DNA of 63,886 bases, filler included, from Asterionella formosa (lineage: Eukaryota): NCBI GenBank assembly GCA_002256025.1. It is 7 parts of 7 records of this genome, joined end to end, with 100 filler letters (N's around TTAATTAATTAA, not from the genome) between each part and the next. Parts side by side here need not be neighbours in the genome. Positions count along the whole stretch, not along the records: positions 1 to 27,433 come from NKIB01001491.1; 6 more parts are not named here. The stretch is one strand, 5' to 3'. Below the pieces are notes generated by a model. It did no database searches, was not told where the DNA came from, and saw only the letters and a list, made by a program, of their open reading frames with translations. The position numbers were made by a program, and so were the translations under genes. Positions 2,731 through 63,886 of the stretch are shown here, piece by piece; position 1 is the stretch's first letter, and every line of letters begins with the position of its first letter.

Positions 2731-4420
2731 TTGTAGTAGTTGTTGTTGTTGTTGTTGTTCTGTCGTGCGTCTATTCGTAGCGTCGTGTGTAGAACAAGAG
2801 AGGAGTTAGTTGTTTGTTGCTGTTCTTGTTGCTTATCACCAGTAGGTAAATGATTGTACCGTATTTTGGCTATAATATGAGCTACTTGTAATGTTTGTCA
2901 ACGAACGAAAGCATGAGAGAGAGAGATCAACACCAACACCCATCAACAACAGACGGTACGGTATTTTAACTACCCTCCTGTGTGGTCGCCCAACGCTTCA
3001 TTACACATAATGCAGCAACAACAACAACAACAAGAAGAAGAACAACAACAATACAAACAAGAACAACTAACAACACGACTTGATAGTCCAGAACAAAAAA
3101 ACAAGAAAACCCGCCGCGGCAAACACAACTACAATATTGTCTCGCTCGATTATCCTTTGCCTTTGGAATCAATACAAACACAGACCTATACAGGAATAGC
3201 CTTTGACAAGTTGTACTCACAACGATCAAGAGTAGTGCCGGTAAATGTTCCAAGAATACCGGGGTAACAATCTACCGGTATTTGTTGTCAAGTCAAGGGC
3301 GAGGATGGAATGTTATGACCACACCTACGACCCGGCGGTATTATGGTCTGTGCGTACCAGTATTTCTTACATGTACAAGCAATGATCCATACCGTTTGCT
3401 TGATAACGCACGACGGTGGTCCTCTAGCACTTCGATTACAGGCTACCGGTACATCATATTCTTTTCAGTTTTCAAACACGGTACCTGGTATCGGTAGCCT
3501 ACCGGTACTCCGAAACAACACTATACATAGACTCAATTCTTTATGATACTGGTATACTACCAATTGGTATTTTTCGAACATACCGGTATGTACATTTTAG
3601 TATGTAGAATAACAACAAGACAAGGCTACACGGCTACGATACCATACTTACCGCCTGTAGCTAGTATATATACTGGTACATATTTTTTTCATGATCATGA
3701 ACGAATAGGAAGCAGCAGAGGAAGACTCATGACAATGTTGATCAGCAGTACTGGAATGAAATACCGGTAATCAGAAATAGCAGGTGTTGAAATTCTTAGA
3801 TCGTGCACCACCAGCAATGATGCCATGACTGCAGACTAACTGACTAAATGGACTCACCAAAAATGACTATAGCTAGAGTTCTGGTGCCATAATAGTTATT
3901 GGCAATTCAGCAGTAGCACTGGTACTCTCACACCTTATTCCATCAACAATGCCAATGAACGCTTTTTGGGGGAGTGATGCTGTATATGCTCTAGATATAC
4001 ACATGATGCTGACTGACTTTGTAGCCTGCTCAGATGCAAGCAACAGAACAATACATTCCACAGCAAGCAATCAAAAAGAATAGTATGACAAAACCATCAT
4101 GATGGTTCTGCCAATGCTGCTGCTAGCACTGAAGGAGGATATCATTACTATGTTGATGCTCCAGGCAAACATGTCATTCTATTAGCAGTGTAAACAACCA
4201 TATTCATTTACACACAACATTTGCTTGCTTGTCACACCATGCACAACTTCCCAATTGCTCAGCCAACAATACTACTTCTTGCTTCCTGCATATGTCCCTA
4301 GCTTGTCTACACAGCAATAATAGTGTAGATGTGTCAACATTTGAAGGGTTCTGGTGGTGGTGCTACTTACTACCAATCTATTCTGCTTGATCAATAATTA
4401 TACTTTAGAACTTTCTTGCA

Positions 4421-4710
4421 ACTTCATTTTCTTAGATAAAGTACCCCACCTTTGATTTATCCTTCCATCATGCTATTGAATATTGCTTCTTTTATGGAAT
4501 CACCGCTGGCCTCAGAAGTTCCTGATGTTTTAATGCCAACCAATTGGCTAGAAAATTGGGGACACTGCTTGTTTGGATTTTGCCATAGTAGTGGTTTCTG
4601 GCATTCATCATTACGGAAAAATCTCCTTGATGGGTTGATGAGATATTTGGAAATTTCGGCAATATAACAAGAACTCCCCATCATTTCCCCCCTGGCTGGT
4701 ATTTAGTGAT
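4421..4710. repeat. Dispersed ~290-bp repeat, copy 1 (copy 2 at 10921-11220)
   Basis: Both copies begin acttcattttcttagataaagtaccccacctttgattta and stay alignable to ccctggctggtatt, with substitutions and small indels. Confidence 0.95.
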
Positions 4711-5789: not shown

Positions 5790-7284
5790 ATGTCAGATGA
5801 TGAATATGAATATTATACAATTATGATGATCAGTTCGTGTTCTGTTTCTGCTAATTATTTTGATCATGGGGCCATGACTTCTTGACAAACTACTATTAGC
5901 TATTAGCTACACCTCCTGCTTTAGAATTTCTTACTCTGATGAATGTCATCTCATGGTTGCATGTTTAATACACACATCCAATATGCCCACAACAAGACAC
6001 ACGACAGGACGAAGAAATGCAAAACATGGGGGTCAAGTGGCACTGGAAAATGCATACCCGTATACTTCATTGTCCTGGACCCCCCAGTACATTTTTCTCG
6101 AGGTGGAACCAAACACCCAATAATTTTCTTATCACAGACAATTTAATATGCTAAAATTCTTTTTGTCCTCGCAGGCACTAGTATATAATTATTTAGCTAC
6201 CATGTTGCGATTCTTTTGTACATACAAAACACAAGAGAGGACAGGTAGTGGCTGTTAGCAGGTGGAGAATCCTTCATGCATCATGTTGTCGCAACCTTGA
6301 CCATGACAAAAATACGAATTATCTCCACGAAAATAGAGAACGACGCTTTGCTACTTGCTACCTGTATTAACAACGACATGGAAAATACAATTGTAAAAGA
6401 AGTAAAGTAATAACACTAATAATGACAACGAAAGTTGAGATCAAAGATAACAACATGAAGTCACGTTATTCTTGCGAGGTGAAGAACTCTCTCATTTTTC
6501 ACATCACAGAAATAATTGTCATATTAATACATCTCAAAAAATGTGCGCTATCCTGTAGAACTAATGAAATTAACTTAGGTCCAGTATTAGGGAAATTTCT
6601 TCATTGTCCTGGCCCCCCTTGAGTAAAATCAGTCAAATGCAGTCACAGCAGTGTCCATTGGGGGGGGGGGGTCCAGGACAATGAAGTATATGGTATTACA
6701 ATGCCAAGGGCCTCCGCAATTCAAGTGTAGAAAAGGCCATTCAGGCATTTAAAGAATTGTTGACAAAGGAACAACATAATCCAACCCTGTTGTCATTCAA
6801 GGCATTGAAACAACTTGTCAAACTACATATTCGACACGCTCACAAGGAACAGTACATTAGGGACTATCAACGCTTATTACAGTTGTGGCGAAAGGAGAGA
6901 TAACTCCCAATGCCATGGAAAAAGGGATGCATACCATGTTGGATAGGTTGCCATCAGAGGGGGCGGTCTATGATGCAACCATTACTTTGCTTCCATCCAA
7001 CAACGGGGGCATGTCCCAACAAATGACTATGGTTCAAAACAACGCTCAAATATGGACAATTGTGTTTCGATTCGAATCAACTTGCCAAGCTGCAAGTTGT
7101 CTTGAGAGACTTGTCCAAATTGGGAAGTAGTGGGAGTCATCAAATGGAAATTTATGCCCTAGAAATGCAATTGACAACACATCAAAAGGATTTAAAACAA
7201 GTTAGAAAAACGTTTGAAAATGCAATGGCAGTGAGAGGGGGGATTCCACGAACATTGGCACTCTTTCAAGAGTTGGGATGCTGA
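5790..7284 (+). pseudogene. CSN2: COP9 signalosome subunit 2 pseudogene (N-terminal part), interrupted by a MITE
   Basis: MSDDEYEY at 5790; VALENAY before the MITE and YYNAKG...FKALKQLVKL after it; NAMEKGMHTMLD; LWFKTTLKYGQL; MEIYALEMQL. Frameshifts near 6884 and 6990, TGA at 7024-7026 where R of RLWFKT is expected, and the sequence ends before the PCI domain. Confidence 0.85.
6063..6688. mobile_element. Non-autonomous TIR element (MITE) with TA target duplication, Tc1/mariner-like; family A copy 1
   Basis: Left end TA|TACTTCATTGTCCTGGACCCCCC at 6061; right end GGGGGGTCCAGGACAATGAAGTA|TA ending at 6690. Extra internal TIR-like copy near 6599-6618. No transposase ORF. Confidence 0.9.
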
Positions 7285-10292: not shown

Positions 10293-10920
10293 GGAGCTAG
10301 TACTAGTAACGACACCACCAACAAAAAGTCATAGAGGGCCGATTCACGTCTTGGAATCCCCCGACGCTTGCAGGGACGCTCGAATCGGTGAAGCTTATCG
10401 TTGTTATCTTTATTGTTCTTGTTCTTGTGGGTAATACTACTACTGCTGCTGCTGCTGCTACGTTTATTTGTTGTGTCCATTGTTGTTGAAGAGGAGTGGG
10501 AAGAGTAATAAGGAACAGAGTGCGAATCATCCAGAAAAAATACTTCTGGAGTAATTCATAGTATCAGCTATGTTATATGTGAAGCATGGAATGCATATAA
10601 TAGCAAAGCAAACGAGCGATAAATAATGAGTGTAGAGATTTACCAAATAAAGAAAGCTGGTGCTCGCTCATGTAGAATCGATACTACCTGCTGGTACAAA
10701 ATATGAAGAATGACTTCACAGTAGAGGCATCTTCTATGCTGGGAGTCGACAAAAAAACTCCGAAGCCCGAAAAGAAGCAAACTTAGAAAAAATGCTATTT
10801 AACTAAAATCGTTTGCCAGATCGAACGAAAAAGAAAGTGAGGTTCGCAAACGAACATAAAAATCAGGAGAGGAGCGTAATAAAACACTGTATATCTGGGG
10901 TTCTTGTTCTCTTACTTACC

Positions 10921-11220
10921 ACTTCATTTTCTTAGATAAAGTACCCCACCTTTGATTTACCGGTATCCTTCCATCATGCTATTGGATATTGCTGCTTTTA
11001 TGGAATCATCACTGGCTTCAGAAGTTCCTGATGTTTTAATGCCAACCAATTAGCCAGAAAATTGGGGACACTGCTGCTCTTTTGGATTTTGCCATGATAG
11101 TAGTGGCTTCTGGCATTCATCATTATGGAAAAATCTCCTTGATGGGCCAATGAGATATTTGGAAATTTCGGCAATATAACAAGAACTTCCCATCAATTCC
11201 CCCTGGCTGGTATTAGTAAT
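10921..11220. repeat. Dispersed ~300-bp repeat, copy 2
   Basis: Aligns with 4421-4710 and carries an extra CCGGTA after the TA at 10958-10959. Confidence 0.95.
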
Positions 11221-24478: not shown

Positions 24479-26520
24479 GTATGTGTTTCACTAACGGATT
24501 GAAAAGCAGTTCATGTGCATTAATAGATGTCGACCGGCAATTTTATGAAGTGTCGATGTATGTACGGTAAGATAGGACTGCAACGATGAGATGGAATAAG
24601 GATGATGAATGTGTGCAAATGGACGGAGCAAGCATAGCTTCCCCTTCGCTCGTTGAGAATCAGGCTGGCGGATTATTGGATTTGAATTTATTGTCTCGGC
24701 TGAAATGTAGCGTTAGGGTTTTGCTCAGAATCAATGGTACATACAAAGACCATCATGTATAATTTCTACTGTAATATAGTGGCTCCTCCGGATACGTTTC
24801 CGCCTGCCTTGTTATATTACTGGTACCAGGTACCACCTGTTACCAAGTATGTAGTGATACGTACTGGTACCTGGTACCTGGTACCAGGTAGTACCGATGC
24901 CTGGTGTACTTTTTATTCACACCCTGAATTTTAGGTCAAACTGACACCTAAAAAATGGTCGGTACAAAATGTACACACGAGAACGCCTTCTACCTCGGGC
25001 GGACCACACCCATCCATACCTAACACAGAAAGTACTGATAATACGTTGCAGGGCTGAGCAGATCACAAAAAATATTGTAACTATACTAGTATACACATAC
25101 GACTCACCATCACTTCATTTCAACCTCAACCTCAACCAAATGATAGAATGTAGATGAAATGAATAGTTAGCTATTAGTAGTGTCAGTACTACTTGTTCTG
25201 TTGAAATTTGTTGACAACATTCAACAATCGTGGTGGCCTGATTCTTCGGTTGACTGCTTGAACCAAATTAATTCCTTTGTTCATTTCAATAACTACTAGT
25301 AGCAATTCATAAGCATCAAAATTTCAAAATCAGAGTTTCGATGTTAACATGGTAATCTTTAGTAGTAGATTTATCCATACTGGTCTGCTAGCTAGTTTGA
25401 ATAATCTTGCACATTGTGAGTTTAGCTTCATGCACTCCTTGCGTCGCTGATGAAGCCTCAATGATAGGCTTATGGAGCGAGTTCAATCATCTCTTAAATC
25501 CATCAAAGAATCATGTTATTTGTGTGAATTTTTAACAACCCGACCTGCTTTATCAGCTTGCAATAAATGGTGGACCCTCAGTGACAAATTTGCGTGACAT
25601 TGTGATAGAGAATACAATTCAACAATCTAAAATGCGCCAGATTTTAAAAACTTGAAATCGGTGAATAATAGACGAACACATTCAAAGGGTTTTTTAGCAA
25701 TAAGAACAGGGTGGTTAATCGATGATAGCGGGCAATCAATTGGGCTTGAATTGGCAACGAAAACGAAGAAGTATGCTGACTCTATACTACTACTAGGCAT
25801 GGATCATGGTAAACAGAATAAATCAGACGACTACATAATCAAACGAACATTTTCATGGCTGTCATGATATCTAGTCATCAACATTCTATTTTAAAATCAC
25901 ATCCACACATGCAACAAGCTGTTAGAATTGTGGTCGCATTACCAACATGCAACTATCACAAGATACTACAACCCAAAGTTCACCTGCAATTTTGCTGCAT
26001 ACTAGCTAGTATTTCAGAGATTGACGAGACAGCATGGACTTCGGTTGATTGCTGCGATAATCGATCGTTGCCTCATAAAAATGAGCACATCCGTAGCTAG
26101 CAATGACAAAGGTGAGCCGTGGCAAACTGTAGACCGATCATATGGTTTCGCAATATTTAATGACAAGGACAAAGAAAAGTTCATGCCGACAAGATTCTAC
26201 AACACACCGGTATGGTACGTACTGACATGTATGTATGCGCATCCATCAGGTACCAGGGTACTGGTACCAGGTTCCTGGTACCTTGTACCGGTATTAGAAC
26301 TCCATAATATCATAGTAAGTCATGACTACCGTCCAGTATAATTCTATATTTATCTACCGGTACCAGGTACCGTACATCAATGCTCCATGTCAGGTGCGTA
26401 TCAGGTACCCTGGTACCTGATACCGGTACATCCAATGCATCACGTACCGACCTGTAGCTAAGTACGGTATGAACCATCAGAATCCGTCATCCGTTTTACA
26501 CTGTACAAAAGTATTGAATG

Positions 26521-26682
26521 CAGGGAGTCATTATTAGGTTTTCCCGCACCTAAAATTCCAAGAACTGAAAAGGAAGTTTAACTTCGTCTGTAACCTTGTA
26601 CCAACATTTGTCTGTAGGACGAGAAATATTCTCAATCATTTCCTGAATTTTAGGTGCGGAATAACCTAAAATGACCCTCAGG
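26521..26682. mobile_element. Short foldback/MITE-like element with ~40-bp imperfect inverted repeats
   Basis: cagggagtcattattaggttttcccgcacctaaaattcc (26521) is nearly the reverse complement of cctgaattttaggtgcggaataacctaaaatgaccctcag (26642). The related ACCTAAAA core also occurs near 24923-24955 and 26696. Confidence 0.6.
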
Positions 26683-26872
26683 GGCAATTAATTTAACCTA
26701 AAATTCCCCACCTTCTGCCGCAGGTATACCGGGTAGCGGGTAGTATTGCTTTACTTCACATACCAGTATCTTACCAGTATGTACATCGTGCCAGATTATT
26801 GGCAGTACTGGTAGCTACGTCTCGGCTCATTGCAATTACCAGGTACCTGGTACCAGGTACCAGGTACCAGTA

Positions 26873-27082
26873 AAGAACTGCTGTGACCCACTGAGTTCTC
26901 CTATTCGTTTGATTAGTTCGACTACACCTTTTCCATGACTTGCGAGAATCAAACTTCCAGGTCTTGTTAACCAAAGGAGTCAGCAGATTGTGGATCTGTC
27001 GGTATTCTCATTGAAGGTCGAGGTACTGAGATACGAACCCTTTTATGTGGACAAAATTTGACGGTAATGGGTCACAGCAGTA
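26873..27082. mobile_element. ~210-bp MITE, probably with TTAA target (Kolobok/piggyBac-like)
   Basis: Left end AGAACTGCTGTGACCCA; right end TGGGTCACAGCAGTAC followed by TTAA. The left TTAA appears once the adjoining CCWGG array is collapsed. Confidence 0.6.
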
Positions 27083-27433
27083 CTTAAATTTTTATCTATA
27101 ATTGTATATAATTTTATATACCATTATGATCACGGATTACCCCGTTTGGTTTTCGCAAAATTATTTTTAAGAATTTTTGCATCCAGTATTTATATCACTA
27201 TCACACGCAAATGCATTCAGCCACATGAAATGCTTGCGCCTATCAACACCACTGCAATATCGCCCTCATCCCTACTAAGCTCCTGCCCTCCCACAAGCAC
27301 AACATCAACCGGCCGAATTGGATATGGAGAATCCTTTTCTCCACGGCAACAAGTCTCCAATTATCTTGCCAACAAGTTCTGTCTGGTTATTGGAAGCGGC
27401 GCATCGACGTTGCGCTTGTACCATGTCACCACT

Positions 27434-27533
27434 NNNNNNNNNNNNNNNNNNNNNNNNNNNNNNNNNNNNNNNNNNNNTTAATTAATTAANNNNNNNNNNN
27501 NNNNNNNNNNNNNNNNNNNNNNNNNNNNNNNNN
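27434..27533. other. Artificial 100-nt contig spacer (N-TTAATTAATTAA-N); same spacer at 54959-55058, 56745-56844, 58531-58630, 60317-60416 and 62102-62201
   Basis: An identical six-frame-stop linker is embedded in Ns, and the flanking pieces have descending lengths (27433, 27425, 1686, 1686, 1686, 1685, 1685). Confidence 0.97.
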
Positions 27534-28332: not shown

Positions 28333-29135
28333 CTATCTCAGATTGGGATGCCTATCAAATGGAAATGTATCTGCAAAACACCGTTCCATGGCTGCATCAA
28401 TATATTCATCTGACTTTTCCCGACACTTCGGATTTGCCTGCAACGAGAGGGCAGCCCTTCTTTTCACGCATTCCTGCCCGTGACCTGGAAATGAGGTGAT
28501 GCGACCCTGCATCATTTCACGGATCGTACCGCATTCACCAGACAAATTTTCGGCTCTGATTTCCGTGCACGCCAGGTGCATGCAATTGTTGAAGGGGTCC
28601 ATTTTGGTGCTGAGAGCTCACGTGTTAGCATCACAAGAAAGACGTTCAATACAAGAATCAGAAAAATATTCTGAGTTACTCACCGACAAACGTCAATGGC
28701 GTGAATTAGCTCATGGACCATGCTCTCGTGGGCATGAGTTTCATCTCTCAAATGCTGCTGACAGAGATAAATCTCAGGAATGAGCTTCAGCGTTTCCTTG
28801 GCACTGTTCTGAGCATCAAAAATATCCCGTCGACAGCTTCGTTCTGACGTCGAGTCAACCGATGCGTTGCCCTTCCGAACCACCATCTGCTCCACCACGC
28901 CAAATCCGCCACCCGCCATGGTATCACCGCAATCCAGGCACTTTATGAATCCCTTGGGTGGTTGACACCCAAGCTTTTGCAGATTGTCCAAGAGGAACCG
29001 AACTGTCATATTCCTTCCCAAACCACTGGCAATGTAACCATCGCACCGCTCTTTAAATTTTGTTTGCTCTTTTTCTCGAGTGGCCATGGCCGAGGAAACA
29101 GGGTCAGGGAGCGGTTGCTCTGTGGTGGATGACAT
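28333..29135 (-). CDS. ATP23: Mitochondrial inner membrane metalloprotease ATP23 (peptidase M76; 2 exons, ~242 aa)
   Basis: AGGGF, HELIHAID, HLACTEIRAENLSGEC, QECVKRRAALS and CFADTFPF motifs. The 74-nt intron 28683-28610 (GTGAGT...CAG) joins DVCR-TKMDP in frame. Confidence 0.93.
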
Positions 29136-30939
29136 GGAAGTGTTGGTGTGCGTCGTGGTATCTGGAAGATTGTATGGATATGTTGCAATAGTAGTACGGT
29201 GTTCCTTTGCTGGAGGGAGACAAGTGATGTGTGTGGTGTGTGGTGTGTCGAGCTTCCCTCCTGCTGCTTGGCGGTACCTGGTAGTGTACCTGGTATCTGG
29301 ATCCTCTGGAAGTGTTCCGGTAATCGACATATTTAGCATAATCTTTTCTTGAGTTAAAAACGTGTTTCACCGGATCTTCCCTGGATCCTGCTATTACAAA
29401 TCAAGCACCAGCCACAACACCAATGTTCAATAGAAATCAATTAAGCTTACAGCTAATTGAGGAGAATTTTTTGAAAATCTGCACATGTACTCACTTTTGA
29501 TGACTTGGTTGTCCATGCAAACTCACACCACAACTTCCTTGAAATCCATCCAAATTATCATCAAAAGCTGTACATGGAATGATGGCTGCTCAGTTTGTTG
29601 CTGCTTTCTTTGGATTTGGAAAGTAGCCACAGTAGGTGCTGCATATATTTCCATACTTTTGACAATTTTGCCAACTATGTCAGAAACAGTTGAAACATTG
29701 GGCTGGCTGTTACTCACAGCATCATGTGTAAGTGGAGAGGATAAATTATAGAAAGAATCGAAGACATCTAGCTGGTACTACTGTCTATCTGGATGGATTG
29801 TGTTTTTGAATCTCTAATATAGATCCAGATGAGCCACATCTCATCAGTTTTACCTTGCGCAAGTCTGGGTAGCTTAACAATAGTATGCCCACAGTTTCAA
29901 CAATCCCATGTCCAGCCAATTTCACAGGACCACCATAAGTGGGGCATAATTGGAAGAATCAGTATTAAAATCTGGAACTTGCAGCCAATTTTCAGTCAGC
30001 AATGGCATTTGCAAGCATTGAACCAACCCCCTCCCTGTTATAATGATGCCAAAGGACTGACAGCATGAGCATATCTAATATTGTGATGGGCACAAGCTGG
30101 TGGTACCTGGGACTGTAGTGTATAGTGTACATCAATGGACTAACGGTACGCATTCTGCTTACGTACAGTACCTGGTACCAGGTAGTACGGTTGCACAGTG
30201 GTGGATGATACCGACCAAGTACACATGCTTGGCACCAGGTACCTGGTACTCCGTACCAGGGTTCCCTACCTGCTGCGTAGCTGGAAGTACCAGGTACCCT
30301 GGTACCATGACTAGGTACAGAGCGAAGAACATAAAAATAACGGACTTTGCTTCAGTTTCCGGTATATTTGAACCGAAACCGTAGACTCGTGCTGCGCAGT
30401 GTATATTGTCTCGACCGATACACAGTTTACATGACCGGAACGTTGCTTGCATGCTGTATAGCATGACACAACGAATGGCTGTATGAAACAAACGTAAGCC
30501 CACCTTTCGATGCCGCCCGCTCGCTCGCTGAAGTCCTTCTTGTGTCACGAGATAAGTTTCCGTTGCGATGAGAAGTACCGGGTATAGCTACCGGTTTACT
30601 ATAATGATTTGAGTTTATATATAAAACAATTCCTATTTATTTCTTGTATCCTTTAAATTAGTGAAACATATATAGGCAGCATTGCATCGTGAATTTCTTT
30701 GAAAAGCAAAATTTCGATGAGCGATTTTGTGAATCGGAGGAACTGAAACCGGTAATAGACTGTCCTTACGTTTTCAAAGTTGAATGATTGTGTCTTTGCG
30801 AGCCAATCAGGAATCATTATAGCAGCAAAACCGACAGAGAAACATCGCCCAACTCGACAAATTATTGCTCTCACGAGAGCGGATTGGCTATTGATTCGAA
30901 TTTTTCAAAACAAAGCGAGAAGTTACCAGTACCACCGCT

Positions 30940-33900
30940 ATGTCATCTTATTTAGAAGTACGGCTTTCCTGCCAAAACGACAATTTTGAAAGCTGCGAAG
31001 GATCTATCGAAATAGACCTAGTAGCGCTATCGTCATCTTCAGAAGCAGTTATCCAACCGGTGCAGTTCAACACAGTACAGGACGCCACCACGACTGAGCG
31101 TGATCCTCCTTCGAACAATTGTAATGATACCCATCCACAATTTCCTCCGTCATTTTCACTGATATCCTCACAAAGTAGTGAACTCGACGAGGAAGATGAA
31201 GTTTTGGCGAATATTCTCAGGGAAGCTCGTGCCGCTGCTCAATTCAAGCAACAACACGGTAGTCGTTCACGTGCAACTGGACACAAACTGGATGAAAGAA
31301 AGCAACATATTATCCAACAAGCACTAAATTGTTCGGTTGCAAAGAATGCTTCCCCTAAACTCAGGTCATCGAAGGAAGTGCTCAAACTGGCGCGTGAGGT
31401 ACTTCATCACTCAGGTTCAAATGTGTCAAACAGCAGCACTGAGTTCAACTCTTCCTTTGATCCACGAAATACTCAACCCCCAGTCTCGGAACCTGCTTCG
31501 GAATACAAATGTCTCAGTCCCACTAATAGCGAAGCAGAGGAGTACCAAAAATCAGTGATCTCAGCATCCAAATTCGCAGGAGACTCGTCGATACCCAGGG
31601 AAACGATGTTGAACAAGATTGATGGCATCAATGCTTCAAAAAATTCTCCATCTGCCATGCCGGAAGAAAGGGAAGAAGAATTTTCTGCAACTTTAAATTT
31701 CAGCCTTTTTTCATTCCTTCTAGGCGAAACATCCACTGTCGCGCTCTTCGACAGCAAGCGCCCACAAAGCGATTTTGTTGATTTGAAAATGAGAAACTTT
31801 TCTAGTCTACAATGTGGTGGTGAGATCCAAACAGTTGAAACAGATGAAGATTTCATCAGTGACACTTTTCACCACTCTGCATCAATCATTTCCAGTCCAA
31901 GTGCTATTATACATGTCGCTCCTCCGTCTTATGCCGAACACATAAATGCTATGGAGGTTGACCCTCGCATGCCAGCGTGGATTTCTGCACAAAGTGCAAC
32001 CTTTACCGATGAGGAGCAAAAGCCTCAGGATTGTTTTTATTCGTTAGGCACGTCGAGGACTGTCGTTGTACACGAAATTGTTCGAGGTAACTGGACATGG
32101 TCGACCGCGTGGTCTCCAGATGGAACCAAACTTGCAATGGCGACAGAGAACCATCACCTTGCAGTAGTTGACACTAGTTCCTCAACCGTTTGGAGAGTCC
32201 AGCATGACCGGCGGATCAACAAAACAGTTCGGAATGACACAACTCACAGTATTCGATCAATTGCATGGGGCAGTCAATTTATTGCTGTCGGTGGAACTGG
32301 CAATGCTGTGTCCATCTTGGCACCAACAGAGCCCTATCCTATACTACATACAATTCGGGGGACTGGCTTTGTGGGATCATTGGATTGGAATTTAAATTCT
32401 GCCGTGTTGGCAATTGGCAGTCGTTTAGACAAGTGCCTTATTGTCAATATTAGTGCAACAGGCGATGAACACAACAACCGTTGCGGACATCCCGAAGCAA
32501 GGCGAATTGTCAGCACAATTCTTCACACGATAGAAAGGAAAAACTGGGTAGATGCTGTTACTTTTAGTCCAGGAGGTGGATTATTGGCTATTGGTGATCG
32601 AAGTGGTAAGGTCTCCGTGTACAAGTATAAGAACAATCTCAAGGCGCTCCCGGATGTTCAGGAACTAACAAAATTCACCATGGGCGACGCAATTTTAAGT
32701 GTAGAGTGGTCTCCAGACGGAAAGTGGCTCTACGCGGGCGGCGAAGATTTTCGAGTTATTGTTGTAGACACGTCGTCATGGGGGATTATACATACAATTC
32801 AACGGGATCGTTGGGTACAATTCATTGCATCATCCAATTTAGGGTCACATTTGGCTATTGGGGGCGTCAACTCTGAAGTTACTATATTTGATGTAAATGA
32901 TTCATGGAAACCTGTCATGACCATTGAATTGAAAGGACTTGTTCCATTATCTGCAAAGTGGCACCCGAAAGACCAATATCTTGCCTTGACCGGCCAAGAC
33001 TATAGTGTGATTGCCATTGAGACCACAAACGCAAGATACGTACAAGGGCATTATTTGCAGTCAATTTCACCCATTCTTGCTGTTGCCTTCTCCCCAGATG
33101 GGCATATGGTAGCAGTCGGAAACGAAAGTGGTGTGATAACTTTATACACTTCGAATGGTTCCTCGTTTGTTACAATCTACGAGATGGTCATCGCTGATGG
33201 GGCTTCACAATCAATTGTTTGGAGTCCGAACGGAAAGTATGTTTGCGTCGGAAGCCAAAAATCTTTGGTGGTTCTAGGGAAAGCTAACACAAGGACAATG
33301 GGAGATCGAATTCCTCCAAAGACATCTGGTTTTGGTGTGATACAAGTGGTTCGCATGGATGGCGTGATCGAGGCCGTGTCAATTCAACCAAATGGCCGAT
33401 ATGTGGCCGTGAGTGGAAGTAATACACGGATTCTTGACGCATCGAAGGATTTTGCTTGTGTCCATGAATGGAATCATCACTCCATCTTGGCGAATGCCTG
33501 GGCGCCAAATGGCCTGTGGTTTGCTGCCATTGGACGAAATCAACAATTGGCTGTTTACGACACAAGCAGCAAAACGGTCAGTAATTGGAAGGTGGTCCTT
33601 ACTTTTCAGTGTGAGCAAGCTGGTTTATCTCTTGCTTGGGGACCAGCTGTCGTAGATGGTCTCCGATATCTTGCGTATGGCGGTGAAGACAAGAAGGTGA
33701 CAATTATTGAAATTCGTACTTACGAAGGAACCTGGGAGACTGTTTTGGAAATCCCTCGCGGCGGCATTATATACGACCTTGACTGGGGCAAGAGTGGCAT
33801 GCTCGCTGTAGCAGTCGGTGATGGTACAGTCACTGTCATAGACTTGGCATATCTCCAAGTTGGCTGGGCTGTGAACGAAATGGACTACAATTGGCAGCGC

Positions 33901-34086
33901 CAAGGCATCACCTGCTTTGCGGAAATTCGTCGTAGTAAAGGGAAGAATTCTATGCGTACAATTAGATGGATACCAGAAAAGCTTGGGGCCGACAATTTGT
34001 TGGCAATTGGGGGAACTGATGGTGCCCTGGAGGTCGTCGATCTTACTGAACGGCAACGTTGCAAAGGTTTCGGCAATGGGCTTTAG
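30940..34086 (+). CDS. WD40-repeat protein (probable double beta-propeller) with low-complexity N-terminus
   Basis: 1048 aa. More than 12 repeats of the type AWSPDGTKLA, FSPGGGLLAIG, EWSPDGKWLYAGGED and AFSPDGHMVAVG from about residue 370. Confidence 0.88.
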   Translation: MSSYLEVRLSCQNDNFESCEGSIEIDLVALSSSSEAVIQPVQFNTVQDATTTERDPPSNNCNDTHPQFPPSFSLISSQSSELDEEDEVLANILREARAAAQFKQQHGSRSRATGHKLDERKQHIIQQALNCSVAKNASPKLRSSKEVLKLAREVLHHSGSNVSNSSTEFNSSFDPRNTQPPVSEPASEYKCLSPTNSEAEEYQKSVISASKFAGDSSIPRETMLNKIDGINASKNSPSAMPEEREEEFSATLNFSLFSFLLGETSTVALFDSKRPQSDFVDLKMRNFSSLQCGGEIQTVETDEDFISDTFHHSASIISSPSAIIHVAPPSYAEHINAMEVDPRMPAWISAQSATFTDEEQKPQDCFYSLGTSRTVVVHEIVRGNWTWSTAWSPDGTKLAMATENHHLAVVDTSSSTVWRVQHDRRINKTVRNDTTHSIRSIAWGSQFIAVGGTGNAVSILAPTEPYPILHTIRGTGFVGSLDWNLNSAVLAIGSRLDKCLIVNISATGDEHNNRCGHPEARRIVSTILHTIERKNWVDAVTFSPGGGLLAIGDRSGKVSVYKYKNNLKALPDVQELTKFTMGDAILSVEWSPDGKWLYAGGEDFRVIVVDTSSWGIIHTIQRDRWVQFIASSNLGSHLAIGGVNSEVTIFDVNDSWKPVMTIELKGLVPLSAKWHPKDQYLALTGQDYSVIAIETTNARYVQGHYLQSISPILAVAFSPDGHMVAVGNESGVITLYTSNGSSFVTIYEMVIADGASQSIVWSPNGKYVCVGSQKSLVVLGKANTRTMGDRIPPKTSGFGVIQVVRMDGVIEAVSIQPNGRYVAVSGSNTRILDASKDFACVHEWNHHSILANAWAPNGLWFAAIGRNQQLAVYDTSSKTVSNWKVVLTFQCEQAGLSLAWGPAVVDGLRYLAYGGEDKKVTIIEIRTYEGTWETVLEIPRGGIIYDLDWGKSGMLAVAVGDGTVTVIDLAYLQVGWAVNEMDYNWQRQGITCFAEIRRSKGKNSMRTIRWIPEKLGADNLLAIGGTDGALEVVDLTERQRCKGFGNGL

Positions 34087-35396: not shown

Positions 35397-36824
35397 TCAA
35401 CCATAGTGTGAAAAGTCCATGGGAATGAATGTTTTGTTTTCATGACAATACCCTAGAAAAATATCTGTCATGAATTCACCATCAGCAACTGTCTTGTTCC
35501 ATTTTCGTTGATGATTCATGCTCCATCCTTCCTCCACTTGCTTCCTGGTCAAGTACCACTTATTCAAATACCAACGACATGGTGTTGCACGAGGGAAATG
35601 CTTTTTCCCTTCTTTTTCCCATCGAGGACAGGACCATGGTTTGTGGCAAAAAATGGGATGAGATAATTTAACCTCCTGAGGTGGAACTTTCCGACAATCA
35701 ATACAGGGTTCCACTTGAGGGATACACGTACCATCCCATATTGGTTCAGATAGAATGTTGTTGTAATAGCAATTATGCAATTCAAGGCCTTGATCTGGTT
35801 GAATAAATGAATAATAATATCCCAGTAACCCTTGAATTTGTGGGTCACCCCAACATGATGTGGTGTGCATAATCCCTCCCCAGCCACCAGTAATTGTATA
35901 GTTGGCAGTGTGTACCATGTCAATCAAAATGTCAAACACAGTTTGATTTGGCACAACAGCAAAGAATCCACCTTGAATGGGTATATGTTTATAGTTTGTT
36001 GAAGCCCGCAATGCCATAAATACCTGTTGATAGTCACGAGTAAACATGGCTTGTATGGTATTTGTTTTACCACCAGTTTGAGTGGGTCGCATGATTTGTA
36101 GTTTTGACCTGGCCACATTCCTATTCGCTTCTCCCTCCAAAATGAATGAATCAATAAGATCATCCAACGGTTGGAGAAGCATCGTATCTAAATCAAGATG
36201 AATTACCAAGGGGTATTTTGTTAATGTATATGCGTATAGCTTAATGAATTCATGTGCGCCACAACAGCCATTAGTATGCAAGTATGTCAAGTAGGGTTTG
36301 TTGGTAATGAGTGTTTCATTAATAGGTAGGTCCAATAGCAACACCTCATATCCAAACTGTTCTAACAGATTCACACACTCCGGTATGACTTGAGTTTTGG
36401 ATGCTAGAGCAAACAGATGATAATCGTATTTGGATCGGTGAATGGTGTCAGCACCATTATTTTGTTGATTCCTACAACTCATGGCATGAATATGATGGGC
36501 CAACAGTGGCGCTGATTGTAGTGCATCACTTTGAAGGGACTCGCATTTCGAAACAGTGACTGCGTATGCGATTTTGATTGGCGGCTGCTGCTGTTGTTGT
36601 TGATTTTGTTCTTCTTGACCTTGATCTTGATGCTTATTATTATTATTAATATGATTCGCAGTACTACTAATACTACGAGCATCTTCATCAGGTAACGAAT
36701 CAAGAAATTGATGAGTATTTTCGGTAATAGGGTTAAGCAAAATTAGATACAAGCCCTGAATCATGACAAGCGCCACAAGTAACAGGGACAGCAGCACAAT
36801 GTGACTTCTTGCTGTGTTCATCAT
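35397..36824 (-). CDS. GT8 (glycogenin-like) glycosyltransferase, type II membrane protein
   Basis: N-terminal anchor and Gln/Asn-rich stem, then EFIKLYAYTLTKYPLVIHLDLD (DxD), QGGFFAVVP, IQGLL and HKPW. Confidence 0.85.
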   Translation of the reverse strand: MMNTARSHIVLLSLLLVALVMIQGLYLILLNPITENTHQFLDSLPDEDARSISSTANHINNNNKHQDQGQEEQNQQQQQQPPIKIAYAVTVSKCESLQSDALQSAPLLAHHIHAMSCRNQQNNGADTIHRSKYDYHLFALASKTQVIPECVNLLEQFGYEVLLLDLPINETLITNKPYLTYLHTNGCCGAHEFIKLYAYTLTKYPLVIHLDLDTMLLQPLDDLIDSFILEGEANRNVARSKLQIMRPTQTGGKTNTIQAMFTRDYQQVFMALRASTNYKHIPIQGGFFAVVPNQTVFDILIDMVHTANYTITGGWGGIMHTTSCWGDPQIQGLLGYYYSFIQPDQGLELHNCYYNNILSEPIWDGTCIPQVEPCIDCRKVPPQEVKLSHPIFCHKPWSCPRWEKEGKKHFPRATPCRWYLNKWYLTRKQVEEGWSMNHQRKWNKTVADGEFMTDIFLGYCHENKTFIPMDFSHYG

Positions 36825-39527
36825 CAAGGCTAAGGTTGATAAGTCACAGAAGGAGTTTGTTTGCTTCTACCGGTAGCCATGTCAAAGGGGCCTCGGTTCA
36901 TGCATCGATTTATGACAGAACTGTGTGCGCCATTCCTACCGGTATGTGCATTCCTTTATTTTTTAATACATGAGCGATCGAGCCGTCATCGTCCCAAGGC
37001 GGCAGAGGATTTTTTATGCATGACGATGGTGCTACACTCTCACGAAAAACGACATTGAATTTTACAATTTCAATACTTAATTAGCTGGATTACGAATTTT
37101 GACTCTGACTCTCGGTACCTGGTACCGGTTTTTGTATTCCAAGTACCCCGGTATGTGGATTACTCGGAGGGCTCAAATATACAACAGTGCATAGGAGTTT
37201 GCACTGTTCTGATCTACCCTTTCTGGTTGGGCCATTCTTATCATTTTTCATTGCATATCACTTCATTTGAAATTTTTGGAAAATGCATCAGCAATGGTAA
37301 CTCGACTTCAACTGAATTTCATTCATTTCAAACTTGACACTGTATCTCATCTGTATCACAGTGTATCATGGTATAACATGGATTGTTACCAGTGACAGGC
37401 CAGCAACAAACATATAAATATACCTGAGCAGTAATATGCATATGCATAGTAGCCTAAGAAAAAAGTAAACGGAATTTTATAACAAACATATCATGTGATG
37501 GAGCCTGTGTATTCATGCTACCAGTACCTGCTACTGGGAGACTGGTCAACATGTCTTCGTCAGCACATTGACCATGTGCGTTGATTATGGGCCATTTCTC
37601 CATTAAAATGTCAAACAAGTTGCTAAATCTATGATGTAAAAGAATATTCATCAATTCATAGGAATGCAAATAGAACTATTGATTTGTTCCAGAAACGACT
37701 AATGCTATGACTACCAATGCGACTACAGTACTGCAACACTATTATAATATGACAAAAGGGCTTGCAAAAGTGGTGTGAGGCTAGAATTTATATTATAGAC
37801 GCCATTAGATCAAGCAATTGCACCAGTGGTGTTTTCATGTTGTGCTGTGTTGCTGATTTTGATTTTATGGCGCAATCCACTGAATCAAAACTGATTACTG
37901 GTGGTAATTATTTGTTGATGTAGTAAGTGCTGCTGGTGGCGGCAACCCCCATGGTGAAAAGCTGGTTGACATGCCACATGGTGATGGGGACAAAGACTTG
38001 TTGGCGCAATTGGATGACTTGATTGCCCGTGTGCAGCATGATGTCTCTGAAGGTGTTAAGCAAGGATTGGGAAATATATGGTTCTGCTGCTCCATCTGTT
38101 CATTACGGAGATGCTATCCAGTGTACCAATAAGTTGTGCTGCTTCGATGAGTGTGAAGGATGCGACGGTGAGCCAGTGAGCTAAAATGGTGGTGCAGCCT
38201 CTCGTTTGTTGGTGGGTAGGCTGAGCAGGAGGAGTGTCCTGGAATTAAGTTGTTTTCCTATGATTCATCTGCAATGGTTGTAGTATGTAGTAAGAAGTTT
38301 TTTGTGGGAGAGCGGATCAGGATCCAGGTCATTGGGAAAACCTATACTAGTGTAAAGGGTTAGCTAGAATGCTGGTGTTGAGAGTGCAAATCATGTCCAC
38401 TGGTGACAAATGACCATCATGAATTGCTCCATTTGATTGCATAATAATAGTACCAAGGCAAAACAATGATATAACCAGTATATGTATTGTCTATGTNNNN
38501 NNNNNNNNNNNNNNNNNNNNNNNNNNNNNNNNNNNNNNNNNNNNNNNNNNNNNNNNNNNNNNNNNNNNNNNNNNNNNNNNNNNNNNNNNNNNNNNNNNNN
38601 NNNNNNNNNNNNNNNNNNNNNNNNNNNNNNNNNNNNNNNNNNNNNNNNNNNNNNNNNNNNNNNNNNNNNNNNNNNNNNNNNNNNNNNNNNNNNNNNNNNN
38701 NNNNNNNNNNNNNNNNNNNNNNNNNNNNNNNNNNNNNNNNNNNNNNNNNNNNNNNNNNNNNNNNNNNNNNNNNNNNNNNNNNNNNNNNNNNNNNNNNNNN
38801 NNNNNNNNNNNNNNNNNNNNNNNNNNNNNNNNNNNNNNNNNNNNNNNNNNNNNNNNNNNNNNNNNNNNNNNNNNNNNNNNNNNNNNNNNNNNNNNNNNNN
38901 NNNNNNNNNNNNNNNNNNNNNNNNNNNNNNNNNNNNNNNNNNNNNNNNNNNNNNNNNNNNNNNNNNNNNNNNNNNNNNNNNNNNNNNNNNNNNNNNNNNN
39001 NNNNNNNNNNNNNNNNNNNNNNNNNNNNNNNNNNNNNNNNNNNNNNNNNNNNNNNNNNNNNNNNNNNNNNNNNNNNNNNNNNNNNNNNNNNNTTTCCAGC
39101 ACTAAAAAACCGTTGAGATTTCAGATTTGAACTTCTTCCCGCTTCTTTTTCAATTCAAATAGCATCATGGGACGACACAAAAACCCCGCAATAACGAACA
39201 TCAACTGATATGCTACCATCCCACTTCATCCGTTGCTCGCGTTAAAGTGACCTAACCGCCGTTTAGACCTGTCGCTTCCCCCTCTTTTCCTTTAAAGTTC
39301 CGATTCACTTTATTGCCGTCAGCTTGCAAGTTCATTGCACAGACCAGACGAGCTCTGCTAACATACCACCGAGGTGCGACGACAAAAATCGTTATTCTGA
39401 GTCGGTATCTTGCTCCACAACCTTCGCCGTTACTTGGTTCCATTATTCGTAAACATCGGGAAACCGTTCGAATCCGTCCTTTTCCGGGAATTAATCAGCG
39501 TCCAACCAGGCTACAATAAAGTGCGCG

Positions 39528-44602: not shown

Positions 44603-45204
44603 ACCAACAGAACATATATTGTTAAAATGATGGTCGGGTGAGAGGTTCGATCAGCCAGCTAGTTGGAGTACAATTCAAGCAACAATGACAAAAATGTAAG
44701 AATGAAGAGTGTAGTGAGACTGCACAAGCGTGACAACGGACTGCGGACTAAAATATCCATCATTGATCAAGGCAGGACAACACACATCATCAGGCATTTC
44801 TCTTCCAGCCATTTATTTAATAGAGGAGTTATTCCATCAATCATGCTAATGTTGCTGCAGATGTTTTGGTCCAGCATAACTAGTCATCAACAGCAGAAAT
44901 CTCATAGACTATTGCAAAGGTACTGCTGGCTGGCTGACTCTGTGATGATTGGTTGATGGAAATGCTTGGGTATTTGAGCAAATGGCTGAGTGGCAAAGCA
45001 TGTTGCCTTTGATCTGAAGTTATGTGGTTCAATTCCTGCATTTTTTGAGAAGCAATTATTGGGTTTGATTCCCACACTCCTTACCATCCTGCACAGTCTA
45101 GCCTGGTTTGCAAGAAAAAGTGTGTTGTCCCATGCAGGCATCTTGTGCCACCTTTCTAGGCAGTTGGAATTTCCCCAACCACTGTGGTTGAGGTGAGTAC
45201 CATA

Positions 45205-45930
45205 TACTTCAGTGTCCTGGACCCCCAATGTACACTGTTGTGAGTGAATTTGACCAATAGGTTGAGATTTCCCTCATANNNNNNNNNNNNNNNNNNNNNN
45301 NNNNNNNNNNNNNNNNNNNNNNNNNNNNNNNNNNNNNNNNNNNNNNNNNNNNNNNNNNNNNNNNNNNNNNNNNNNNNNNNNNNNNNNNNNNNNNNNNNNN
45401 NNNNNNNNNNNNNNNNNNNNNNNNNNNNNNNNNNNNNNNNNNNNNNNNNNNNNNNNNNNNNNNNNNNNNNNNNNNNNNNNNNNNNNNNNNNNNNNNNNNN
45501 NNNNNNNNNNNNNNNNNNNNNNNNNNNNNNNNNNNNNNNNNNNNNNNNNNNNNNNNNNNNNNNNNNNNNNNNNNNNNNNNNNNNNNNNNNNNNNNNNNNN
45601 NNNNNNNNNNNNNNNNNNNNNNNNNNNNNNNNNNNNNNNNNNNNNNNNNNNNNNNNNNNNNNNNNNNNNNNNNNNNNNNNNNNNNNNNNNNNNNNNNNNN
45701 NNNNNNNNNNNNNNNNNNNNNNNNNNNNNNNNNNNNNNNNNNNNNNNNNNNNNNNNNNNNNNNNNNNNNNNNNNNNNNNNNNNNNNNNNNNNNNNNNNNN
45801 NNNNNNNNNNNNNNNNNNNNNNNNNNNNNNNNNNNNNNNNNNNNNNNNNNNNNNNNNNNNNNNNNNNNNNNNNNNNNNNNGTTAGGTACCACCTTGAGAA
45901 AATGTACAGGGTGTCCAGGACACTGAAGTA
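45205..45930. mobile_element. MITE family A copy 2 (interior mostly an assembly gap)
   Basis: TA|TACTTCAGTGTCCTGGACCCCC at 45203 and GTCCAGGACACTGAAGTA|TA ending at 45932. The TIR differs from copy 1 at one position (G vs T), mirrored at both ends. Confidence 0.85.
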
Positions 45931-46054
45931 TACAGTACCTCTCTGGAGACTCACCTATGCTAACAAAAGCAGGCTGTTATTTGACCAGGACACTGAAGTA
46001 TACAGTACCTCTCTGGAGACTCACCTATGCTATCAAAAGCAGGCTGTTATTTGA
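45915..46054. repeat. 70-bp tandem duplication covering the MITE right end and flank
   Basis: ccaggacactgaagtatacagtacc...aggctgttatttga at 45915 and 45985, with one mismatch. Confidence 0.9.
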
Positions 46055-50305: not shown

Positions 50306-50492
50306 CTTATGATCATTCATTTTTTAATATTCATGATATCATAGGGAATGGATTAGTGTTTAAACATGTAGCCTTTGTTCTGAGGTTGTGTTGTTTGATT
50401 CCCCAATTTTTGAGAAGGAATTGTTCGGTTCAACTCCGCCCACACTCCTTGTTTACCATCCCACACGGTCTTGACCGGTGTGCAACAAATAT

Positions 50493-50545
<53 letters not shown>
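50493..50545 (+). repeat. Poly-G tract
   Basis: Uninterrupted G run of about 53 nt. Confidence 0.9.
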
Positions 50546-53447: not shown

Positions 53448-53957
53448 GGTCAAGGGAGTTTAGGAAAGACCAACAAACGGTGATGAAAGGTTGAACAATC
53501 GATGGCGGGAACTATTATGTGGGACTGCTGTGATGGTGGATTATTACAGGTACTCACCGGTACTATTGGTACAGGTACATGAAATAGACTACCGGTACCC
53601 CTGGTACCTGGTATCATATGACATACATACACACATATATCGTTGTCGTGCCTTGTGCACCTGGTACTTGGCACTAGGCTATCGTACCAGTACCAGGTCC
53701 TTCGGAGACTGCATACCTGGTACTCCTACCAGGTATGACAAGATACCCGGTAGAATAGAACCAAGAACCAAGTACTGGTACCAGTACATGGCTATCTATA
53801 ACCCTACCAATGCTACTTCAACTGTTACCATTTACTGACACTACCAGCTATATTTAGTTTTTTCTTACCTAATTGATGTTCTCAAATGCACTACTAGAAG
53901 GCTTCATCTCCTGAACCTAACAGGATCTTGGTCTTATATAGACTGCCATTGGATTGG

Positions 53958-54958: not shown

Positions 54959-55058
54959 NNNNNNNNNNNNNNNNNNNNNNNNNNNNNNNNNNNNNNNNNN
55001 NNTTAATTAATTAANNNNNNNNNNNNNNNNNNNNNNNNNNNNNNNNNNNNNNNNNNNN

Positions 55059-58530: not shown

Positions 58531-58630
58531 NNNNNNNNNNNNNNNNNNNNNNNNNNNNNNNNNNNNNNNNNNNNTTAATTAATTAANNNNNNNNNNNNNN
58601 NNNNNNNNNNNNNNNNNNNNNNNNNNNNNN

Positions 58631-62201: not shown

Positions 62202-63886
62202 CGTACGAGTCAAGTAATATGGCAAATGTGATTGCCTTGTCAGGTCAGTGGACAAAATGCACGATTAACGAGAATGAGAACCCCGACATTTGGTTTGTGG
62301 AGTTGGATAGAATTCGAGAACGATTGAGTCTTACGAGCTCCGCAATTTCGGATGGTGCCTATGTGGCCCATGTTATCAACAACCTACCGGAAGTCTACAA
62401 GAGTTTGGTGGTTGGAAAATTTGGTCTCGCGAACTCCGAGCTCACGATCCAAGAGGTCAAGAAGAATGTATGCGACTATTACGATTTGTATGTGTGTGAC
62501 GAAACCAAGACGAATAAGAATGGCGAGCAGGCCTTCTTTTCAAAAAGCAAGTTCAAGGGAGACTGCAGGAAGTGTGGCAAGTATGGCCACAAGGCAGTTG
62601 ATTGCCGAAGCAAGGGCAATACTACAGAAAAGAGAGAATTAACTCCCGAGCAACGAAATAAGAGAAAGAATGTGAAGTGTTATAATTGCCAGAAGATGGA
62701 GCACTATGCCAGTGAGTGCAACAATCAACAAAATGCACCAATCAAACAGAAGGGAGAAGACGCCAACACTACTACGCAAGGAATGTTCGTGGTGACGTGT
62801 ATTGAGGCAAGGTACCTGGTACAACGAAGAGGTAAATTATACGTGCGTGCATAAGGACCGTTGGCTACTAGATAGTGGCGCTACGGTACATATATGCAAT
62901 GATGAGCGCATCATGGAGGACAAGTGCGCAGTGCATGCAACTGTTCTTGTGGGAAACGGCGCAGCAACTGTTGCGACCGTATCAGGCACAGTGACCCTTA
63001 CGACGACAGACAAAGGAAAAGTGTTGAAACTCACCAATGTGCTCTATGCACCGGAGTTCAAGCAGAACATTATCAGCATTTCGAGAATTATTGACAAGGG
63101 AAATCAAGTTATGTTTGACGATGATAAGATGACAATCATAAACAACAACGGATTTTTGATCTGTAAATGTGATGAAACGAGGACAATTGGTGCAATGTAC
63201 CATGTGCAAGGAACGCCTATTCTAAAGGAAACGGTGTTGGAGGTTGAACAAGAAAGCGAGAAGCCAACACAACAATCTATCGACTATGATACTAAAGAAG
63301 ACGAGAATGAATGGACGAAAGTTAACGATAAGAAGAAAACGACGAAAGCGATAGATGAAACGATCGAGAAAAGAAACGCGAACGAAAATAATGATGTGAT
63401 TGTGGAAATAAATGAAGCGCATGAAATGCTTGGACATGTGGGGGAAAAATGTCTTCGTGAGACATTGAAATTATTTGGGTGGAAACTTGTTGGAAATTTA
63501 AAGGTGTGCGCAGGATGTGCAGCAGCCAAGGCGAAAGCACGCGCAGTACCCAAGATGACGCAAGAGAAGGCTAAGACACCGGGAGAAAGACTGTTTATTG
63601 ATATTAGCGGACCCTACGCAAAATCCGCTGTGGGAAATCAGTATTGGGTGATGGCCGTGGACGATTATACAAGGAAACGCTGGAGTTATTTTATTAAGAA
63701 GAAAAGTGACATCGGAATTGTCATTGGAGCGTTACTCACAAAACTTGCAGGTGCGGGACATAAGACTAAGTTTGTCCGATGTGATGACGCAGGTGAGAAC
63801 TCCAAGCAACTAAAGAAAGTATGCGAAAACCAAGGTGTCAAGATGGAATTTACGGCACCTCATACTCCGCAGCACAACGGTGTTGT
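62202..63886 (+). mobile_element. Ty1/copia gag-protease-integrase fragment, frameshifted by a 7-bp insert
   Basis: Gag similar to the 61318 gag (MANVIALSxQWTKCT); protease WLLDSGATVH; HHCC motif HEMLGH...CAGC; integrase core FIDISGP, VDDYTR, RCDDAGE and TPQHNG. Runs off the window. Confidence 0.95.

Follow-up and report, generated by a model that had tools for sequence, protein, structure and literature searches.

Positions 26837 to 26872 of the Asterionella formosa DNA analyzed here (the window, 63,886 nucleotides including the filler between its parts) hold a series of short units separated by TA dinucleotides, and the question raised by this locus is what kind of process writes such words and stacks them one after the other. 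An earlier note, made from the sequence alone, had described the array as built of TA-CC(A/T)GG-type units in either orientation and had read it as the footprints of a TA-targeting element that revisited the same sites. The sequence of the array is exactly as described there, and chains in the window do mix unit types and orientations.

Word counts and word grammar

We counted 19 copies of TACCGGTA in the window, together with 9 of TACCAGGTA, 12 of TACCTGGTA, 10 each of TACTGGTA and TACCAGTA, and 39 of GGTACC. In 100 dinucleotide-preserving shuffles the mean count of TACCGGTA was 0.17, and that of TACCWGGTA, observed 21 times, was 0.30; neither observed count was reached by any shuffle, which bears out the claim that the non-coding DNA is rich in these words. 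In a census of TA-N(1-7)-TA in the window, CCGG, CTGG, CCAG, and TATA were among the leading 4-nt spacers, and the 5-nt spacers were headed by CCTGG and CCAGG. A k-mer count against a background, the check proposed for the whole genome and made here over the window, yielded a strong enrichment of CCGG/CCWGG words between TAs. Isolated sites in the window comprised 17 TACCGGTA and 7 TACCWGGTA.

The words are sharply defined. The exact TACCGGTA exceeded its dinucleotide expectation 62-fold, and its single-mismatch neighbors stood at 0 to 4.8 times theirs, except for TACTGGTA/TACCAGTA at 16.7. All eight positions of the TACCGGTA-type word are informative and palindromic. In the window, the central base of TACC-N-GGTA was A or T in 21 of 24 cases; among the metagenome contigs of the second group (see below), this held for 408 of 420. 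Between TAs, CCAG/CTGG was enriched 17-fold and CAGG/CCTG only 2.5-fold, a bias that fits the prefix of one element end joined to the suffix of the other, although it is equally compatible with CpG decay of CCGG, which as the source of TACTGGTA/TACCAGTA is inseparable from a primary origin. The word that would keep both 3-nt overhangs, TACCATGGTA, was found zero times in the window and twice in the second group. A general palindrome-making process was considered and rejected, as the median observed/expected ratio over the 64 palindromic hexamers was 1.0, with ACCGGT, GGTACC, and a few others as the only exceptions.

The window itself is eukaryotic, with long ORFs and few introns, and its genes encode anoctamin, class-3 GPCR, kinase, FG nucleoporin, WD40, and Hus1 proteins. 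From 54959 on, it consists of a chain of ca. 1.7-kb contigs joined by N linkers, mostly pieces of copia-type retrotransposons. A run of 59 G (50493-50551, 96% pure) adjoins a 197-nt tandem repeat (49421-50308, 4.5 copies).

Arrays and their neighborhood

The arrays, word clusters, and neighboring elements are listed in Table 1. Tandem Repeats Finder reported three arrays of period 7 or 14 in the window, and resolved the main array as 4.9 copies of period 7 with 92% matches. The eight longest chains combine units of 6 and 7 nt in both orientations, and only 2 of 16 neighboring pairs are identical. Folded as single strands, the arrays form hairpins of 9 to 12 bp, the main array having a 12-bp stem (−13.9 kcal/mol, z of −4.4).

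TABLE 1 Features of the window discussed in the text (positions count along the whole window)
Feature	Position	Strand	Basis
Main array, TA-CCAGG-TA-CCTGG-TA-CCAGG-TA-CCAGG-TA-CCAG-TA	26837..26872	.	Read from sequence
Partner array, TA-CTGG-TA-CCTGG-TA-CCTGG-TA-CCAGG-TA-G-TA	24862..24893	.	
Short chain, TA-CTGG-TA-CCAGG-TA	24818..24832	.	
Degenerate 7-nt array ending in TACCGGTA, inside highly repeated element	26249..26293	.	Tandem Repeats Finder, period 14
Mixed chain, TA-CCGG-TA-CCAGG-TA-CCG-TA	26355..26374	.	
Cluster, GGTACC-CTGGTACC-TGA-TACCGGTA	26404..26428	.	
Cluster of isolated words: 5 TACCGGTA, 1 TACCTGGTA, 2 TACTGGTA, 1 TACCAGTA	3273..3769	.	
Word cluster between divergent genes (28680-29366, minus strand; 30895-34086, plus strand)	29275..30296	.	
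Word cluster immediately upstream of minus-strand ORF 35397-36866	36868..37124	.	
Word cluster upstream of Hus1 gene (52548-53459, minus strand)	53590..53786	.	
Filled site, TACCGGTA in one copy (10911-11214) of ca. 300-nt repeat	10958..10965	.	Alignment
Empty site, single TA in the other repeat copy (4411-4703)	4458..4459	.	Alignment
TACCTGGTA within copia-type gag-pol gene, in frameshift interval 62800-62853	62813..62821	.	
MITE, 211 nt, with 17-nt inverted ends 26874-26890 / 27068-27084	26874..27084	.	
Non-coding repeat of ca. 1.8 kb, some hundreds of copies, between both arrays	24900..26719	.	Depth bins
Artificial linkers, 100 nt (44 N + TTAATTAATTAA + 44 N)	27434-27533, 54959-55058, 56745-56844		
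Artificial linkers, 100 nt (44 N + TTAATTAATTAA + 44 N)	58531-58630, 60317-60416, 62102-62201		

The main array and its partner share a perfect 29-nt inverted repeat (24862-24890 versus 26844-26872), built from array units and bracketing ca. 2 kb, which may have arisen by chance among few unit types or may represent a foldback-like structure. The possibility that the arrays of 24862-26872 are the inverted ends of one element was rejected, since they enclose a single-copy segment (26731-26827) and many unrelated flanks adjoin the array. The boundaries of the ca. 1.8-kb repeat lying between them are approximate, derived from depth bins and from the start of the unique contig, and it contains no ORF longer than 111 amino acids.

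The MITE next to the main array is flanked by TAA (26871-26873 and 27085-27087), a duplication with the Tourist/PIF pattern, and reached a depth of 0.75 to 1.36 million in public run X1, compared to ca. 800 for single-copy DNA. This MITE adjoins the array without belonging to the putative scar system; the earlier proposal that collapsing the array recreates the TTAA of this MITE is wrong and also unneeded, as the MITE duplicates TAA. Other elements occur in the window. A small MITE (26534-26669) with 25-nt inverted ends (TTAGGTTTTCCCGCACCTAAAATTC), together with related CCTAAAAT pieces at 24925-24950 and 26680-26712, looks like a set of nested Tourist-like elements. A TA-flanked MITE with inverted ends CTTCA(G/T)TGTCCTGGACCCCC occurs at 6061-6690 and 45203-45932, and a further copy in a contig labeled as marine metagenome (L019, 3726-4150) is 93% identical to window positions 6075 to 6503.

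Insertion at a single TA

Direct evidence of insertion comes from two cases. The first is a pair of ca. 300-nt repeats that are 89.5% identical and differ by a clean 6-nt gap, with CCTTTGATT-TA-TCCTTCC at 4458 and CCTTTGATT-TA-CCGG-TA-TCCTTCC at 10958 (the flanks match at 44/49 and 45/49 positions). Nothing is repeated at this point except TA, and slippage therefore does not explain the difference. The simpler reading of the aligned pair, unpolarized by an outgroup, would be a gain of CCGGTA, and gain is preferred over loss because TACCGGTA is in ca. 100-fold excess. The neighborhood of the insert contains no template for it.

The second case is found in a copia-type gag-pol gene (62150-63884) that runs over two overlapping frames. 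GMFVVTC, the last landmark of gag, ends at 62800, and WLLDSGAT, the first of pol, begins at ca. 62853 in a different frame, whereas both landmarks share one frame in two other copia genes (one in contig L035 and the other at window positions 55751 to 56650). Deleting CCTGGTA (62815-62821) leaves GGTAC and restores one open frame of 576 codons, a test that is unspecific, as any deletion of 1 or 7 nt within ca. 62793-62854 also reopens the frame. The probability of a chance site in this 53-nt interval is ca. 0.005, calculated from the coding density of 0.1 sites/kb. Both cases support the proposal that words were inserted at a preexisting TA.

Two weaker cases come from public-run contigs, among the variants listed. 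At 26209, some copies of the repeated element are 5 nt shorter, reading CCGG-TA-CG where the window has CCGG-TA-TGG-TA-CG, and one copy, reading GGTACC-GGTATTA, is 35 nt (five 7-mers) shorter than the window at 26249-26293 (joint 26254>26329). A paralog and ortholog search among the fetched metagenome loci gave five alignments of at least 300 nt, four of them 100% identical (two of these were overlapping stretches from a single contig); a looser search gave 56 alignments with 13 indels of 4 to 45 nt, of which one was the TACCGG case.

Public runs and strains

Public runs that contain segment 24500-27400 are labeled as algal, freshwater, lake, or river metagenomes; one run contains a fraction of 0.89 of the sampled words and 19 further runs contain 0.30 to 0.49. 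The indels, substitutions, and joints cited here are among those listed for their contigs, and stretches without cover were excluded as evidence. Contigs of X1, X2, X6, and X16, four runs from as many studies, all contained the main array, and in each run it continued into many different flanks on both sides, indicating that such arrays occur at many loci. Its presence in four independent runs also means that it is not an assembly or library artifact, a doubt that the earlier note had raised.

In X1, positions 24500 to 24790 and 26731 to 26827 are single copy (depth of about 765 to 870), and the contig depths over 24891-26730 and 26873-27400 sum to 10^5 to 10^6, identifying these as repeats present some hundreds of times. 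The stretch of ca. 100 nt that leads from the repeated element to the array (26731-26836) has a depth of 870 in X1, 3.4 in X2 (versus 170 for neighboring single-copy DNA), 0.1 in X6, and 0 in X16. Being single copy in the first and nearly absent from the other three, it indicates that the structure of the locus differs between strains. Within the segment, TACCAGTA occurs twice and TACTGGTA once. A comparison of lengths between strains was made at one locus and for one strain, diverged by ca. 1% (X2, record 17), which differs from the window over 24500-24892 by four substitutions and no gaps and has identical arrays at 24818-24890.

Related metagenome contigs and lineage dialects

Metagenome contigs were scanned for three GGTACC with W between them, which gave at least 124 stretches; 123 loci were fetched, 34 of them with at least 55% G+C and 74 with 38 to 49% G+C. 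The 34 G+C-rich loci belong to other organisms and carry homogeneous arrays (64 neighbors with the same center base versus 7 with a different one). Within the loci of 38 to 49% G+C we defined a second group of 39 loci of at least 2 kb and 40 to 48% G+C (41 before two overlapping ones were dropped), amounting to 190 kb. Because the presence of an array was the basis for selection, the array counts of these loci are inflated; their flanks are unbiased. ORFs from the loci of 38 to 49% G+C and at least 1 kb, second group included, encode DUF6824 and HA domains, which are common in diatoms, as well as ordinary eukaryotic genes. These contigs, of which the ones with domain matches are diatom-like, use the same words as the window in a different ratio.

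GTACCWGGTA exceeds expectation about 1,000-fold in the second group, where isolated sites comprise 155 TACCWGGTA and 15 TACCGGTA (window, 7 and 17, respectively), so that the ratio of TACCGGTA to TACCWGGTA differs about 25-fold between lineages. A few contigs have a window-like dialect, such as L042, with 11 TACCGGTA in 1,966 nt; L019, which shares the TA-flanked MITE, is another. In the loci of 38 to 49% G+C, neighboring CCWGG units had the same center base 133 times and a different one 76 times, and their long arrays contained runs of one variant unit (for example, eight GGTATCT) and blocks of A units followed by blocks of T units, indicating that slippage or local copying contributes. The seventh position of the array unit was A or T in 315 of 323 units, and the other six positions were each 93 to 99% constant.

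Spacers of the second group (L014, L040, L043, L055, and others) are also very rich in TAGTAGTA, TACTACTA, TACTAGTA, and TAGCTA, the first three (8-mers) being enriched 24- to 58-fold and TAGCTA 3.8-fold. Such short C/G stretches flanked by TAs could represent 3-nt microsatellites or else smaller scars of this type. Contig L006 contains TTTAGGG-type, telomere-like repeats at 1154-1450 and therefore comes from an organism other than that of the diatom-like contigs. The array pattern had no match in 2.9 million viral contigs, and a 19-mer of the MITE end had none in viral contigs either; a 14-mer gave 119 chance matches with no similarity to the window.

Search for a candidate element

The earlier note had advised looking for a transposon with inverted ends TA-CC(A/T/G) and a DDE transposase, and neither was found in a search that covered the 64-kb window and about 250 kb of related metagenome contigs. 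Scans for TA-anchored inverted ends over the window and the 74 loci of 38 to 49% G+C returned only arrays, low-complexity DNA, and unrelated MITEs, and the only inverted ends beginning with CC beside TA were the arrays themselves. There was no overrepresented extension of TACC..., the frequent TACC... 14-mers being arrays only, and half sites consisted of decayed words, none of them convincing. The sequence CCWGGTGTAC, with which the repeated element starts at 24900, was not enriched (3 matches versus 4.8 expected). No DDE transposase was found among 41 ORFs of the window (including 12 chosen from the 35 of at least 200 amino acids) or among 108 ORFs of the contigs of 38 to 49% G+C. The statement of the earlier note that the responsible element is not visible in the window agrees with these inverted-end scans and ORF searches. 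The mobile elements visible in the DNA searched were TAA/TTA-flanked Tourist-like MITEs, one TA-flanked MITE with CTTCA ends, and copia pieces. A literature search on these motifs, on diatom transposon footprints, and on diatom MITEs, which returned mostly listings and abstracts, gave nothing relevant.

Origin of the words

The explanation that we favor, tentatively and as slightly less than an even chance, is that a cut-and-paste element which targets TA and has CC...GG ends left the words behind as scars upon excision, slippage having lengthened them in places. Each unit would consist of a constant core (CCGG, CCAGG/CCTGG, or the trimmed CCAG/CTGG and CCG) plus a second copy of the target TA, left behind by a transposon of the Tc1/mariner kind. 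The ends of this putative element would start with CC(A/T)G or CCGG and close with the complementary bases, staggered cuts at excision would leave a few terminal bases on each flank, and end joining would enclose these leftover bases within the duplicated target, one TA on either side. An unpaired or added base, resolved either way, would account for the central A or T. As element-end sequence lying beside TA, scars might be re-hit preferentially, and chains would then grow in steps of 6 to 7 nt, replication slippage copying units afterward in some arrays. What the data show directly is the enrichment, the TA-bounded form of insertion (two cases), chains of mixed units, the prevailing A or T at the center, and the differences between lineages; the transposon as agent, its end sequence, its cut geometry, and the return to scars are inferred. 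Weighing against this explanation are the failure to find such an element or a transposase in the DNA searched, a 5-nt core longer than that of Tc1/mariner footprints, the lack of TACCATGGTA in the window, the near restriction of the sites to spacers with a promoter, the slippage blocks in long arrays of related contigs, and the unchanged arrays at 24818-24890 in the strain diverged by ca. 1%. The idea that arrays were built by repeated revisits holds in part: chains of mixed units are in line with it, and the blocks of identical variant units in related contigs point to a contribution of slippage, so that revisiting is not needed for every unit.

It is improbable, in our opinion, that the words are instead a cis-regulatory or chromatin element of promoters, with palindromic ACCGGT/ACCWGGT as the site of a putative dimeric DNA-binding protein, kept by selection and expanded into arrays by slippage in motif-dense DNA. 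Their location would fit such a role, as they are nearly restricted to non-coding DNA preceding genes: of the 59 sites located before position 54950, 55 fall in the 25.7 kb free of long ORFs (about 2/kb) and only 4 in the 28 kb of ORF. In the second group, there were no sites in 5.5 kb of convergent spacers versus 4.2/kb in tandem and 5.7/kb in divergent ones, which bear promoters, and 0.1/kb in ORFs (densities calculated by subtracting the window-only counts from pooled window and group figures). However, the free non-coding DNA of this compact genome is mostly upstream DNA anyway, and the distance from word to ATG is broad, from 200 to 1,600 nt, without a peak. A fully informative palindrome such as this one would suit a binding site, and a second strain retains the arrays at 24818-24890, but mismatches are almost untolerated, half-site spacings of 0 and 1 are both used in a ratio that varies about 25-fold between lineages, and the density reached in L042 is too high. 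One site is, moreover, a frameshifting insert in a retrotransposon gene, and one paralog lacks exactly CCGGTA at a TA.

Similarly improbable are micro-insertions during double-strand-break repair in which no transposon takes part and a polymerase copies a TA...TA word from elsewhere in either orientation, the ends annealing via TA and the words spreading as good templates. Micro-insertions of this type are usually copied from nearby and are varied in sequence, whereas the insert at 10958 has no template close to it. Copying would account for the TA at both borders and for the two orientations within one chain, A/T flips being inverted copies, and agrees with the lack of a visible element, with the palindromic arrays that fold as hairpins, and with the clustering of words within a few hundred bases. 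Yet it leaves unexplained why only CCGG/CCWGG cores have spread, palindromic hexamers as a class having the median of 1.0 given above.

An ordinary 7-nt tandem repeat that grows by replication slippage and diverges by point mutation, the dispersed words being its decayed remnants, is very unlikely as the whole explanation. The three arrays of period 7 or 14, the blocks of identical variant units in the long arrays of related contigs, and the homogeneous arrays of the 34 contigs with at least 55% G+C (64 versus 7) are what slippage would produce. It cannot produce the 6-nt insert at a lone TA, and the isolated exact 8-mers (17) and 9-mers (7) in unrelated contexts of the window, the 2 identical neighbors in 16, the A or T at the seventh position of 315 of 323 units with the other six 93 to 99% constant, and the lack of length change in the second strain (at one locus) also argue against it. 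An assembly or library artifact, suggested by the N linkers and gaps of the window, has a negligible probability, given the array with its flanks in contigs of four runs from four studies and the same words in metagenome contigs of other projects.

Coming back to excision scars, a wider reading can be proposed that we regard as rather unlikely on present evidence. A TA-specific insertion process would build and continually rewrite the upstream spacer DNA of this alga and of diatom-like lineages with palindromic scars of 6 to 7 nt, its agent being either a very mobile low-copy element or a transposase or nuclease retained by the host and drawn back to its own scars, which would seed hairpin-forming arrays and give rise to lineage-specific dialects. 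If the words are transposon scars, they would be the trace of a mobile element that is unseen yet highly active and whose cut geometry exceeds the 2 to 4 nt of Tc1/mariner, and excision scars by themselves would account for a measurable fraction of the DNA near promoters (about 2 sites/kb) and seed palindromic arrays. They would also offer a direct, countable record of past transposition in algal genomes and be a source of promoter variation. If they are regulatory instead, this group would have a promoter word of unusual density and sharp definition.

Comparison with known systems

A-CCGG-T and A-CCWGG-T, the two enriched cores together with the A and T beside them, are the recognition words of AgeI and SexAI. 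In the CCGG/CCWGG family of restriction enzymes, one fold reads both CCGG and CC-N-GG, with the center base flipped. Restriction words are usually avoided in genomes rather than enriched, and the likeness here is one of sequence only, no nuclease gene having been seen.

The closest form is that of Tc1/mariner footprints, which consist of the first or last 2 to 4 nt of the element between TAs; those of Sleeping Beauty are TACAGTA/TACTGTA, and the outcome of repair varies by cell type (PMC6943129). The comparison drawn in the earlier note is apt in form, as the words of the window likewise have two TAs around a short constant core with A or T at the center, for a net gain of the core plus TA. 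Nevertheless, the core is 4 to 5 nt long here (CCGG, CCWGG) instead of 3 as in Sleeping Beauty, the 5-nt form exceeding the 2 to 4 nt given for Tc1/mariner, and the scars are stacked in chains, at about 2/kb of non-coding DNA, with no donor or transposase found in the DNA examined.

In grasses, excision of Mariner/Stowaway elements produces 3' overhangs from the inverted ends and varied small repair insertions (PMC4423477) and is a major source of small sequence change (PMC4423477, PMC4561436). The rice elements are abundant and visible beside their scars, unlike the situation here, where the visible MITEs are TAA/TTA flanked or CTTCA ended and neither type fits a CC...GG core.

With a 7-nt micro- or minisatellite, the arrays have in common the head-to-tail period of 7 nt and, in related contigs, the copying of variant units in blocks. 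They differ from one in that the window combines units of 6 and 7 nt in both orientations with dispersed single words and with a gain at a lone TA.
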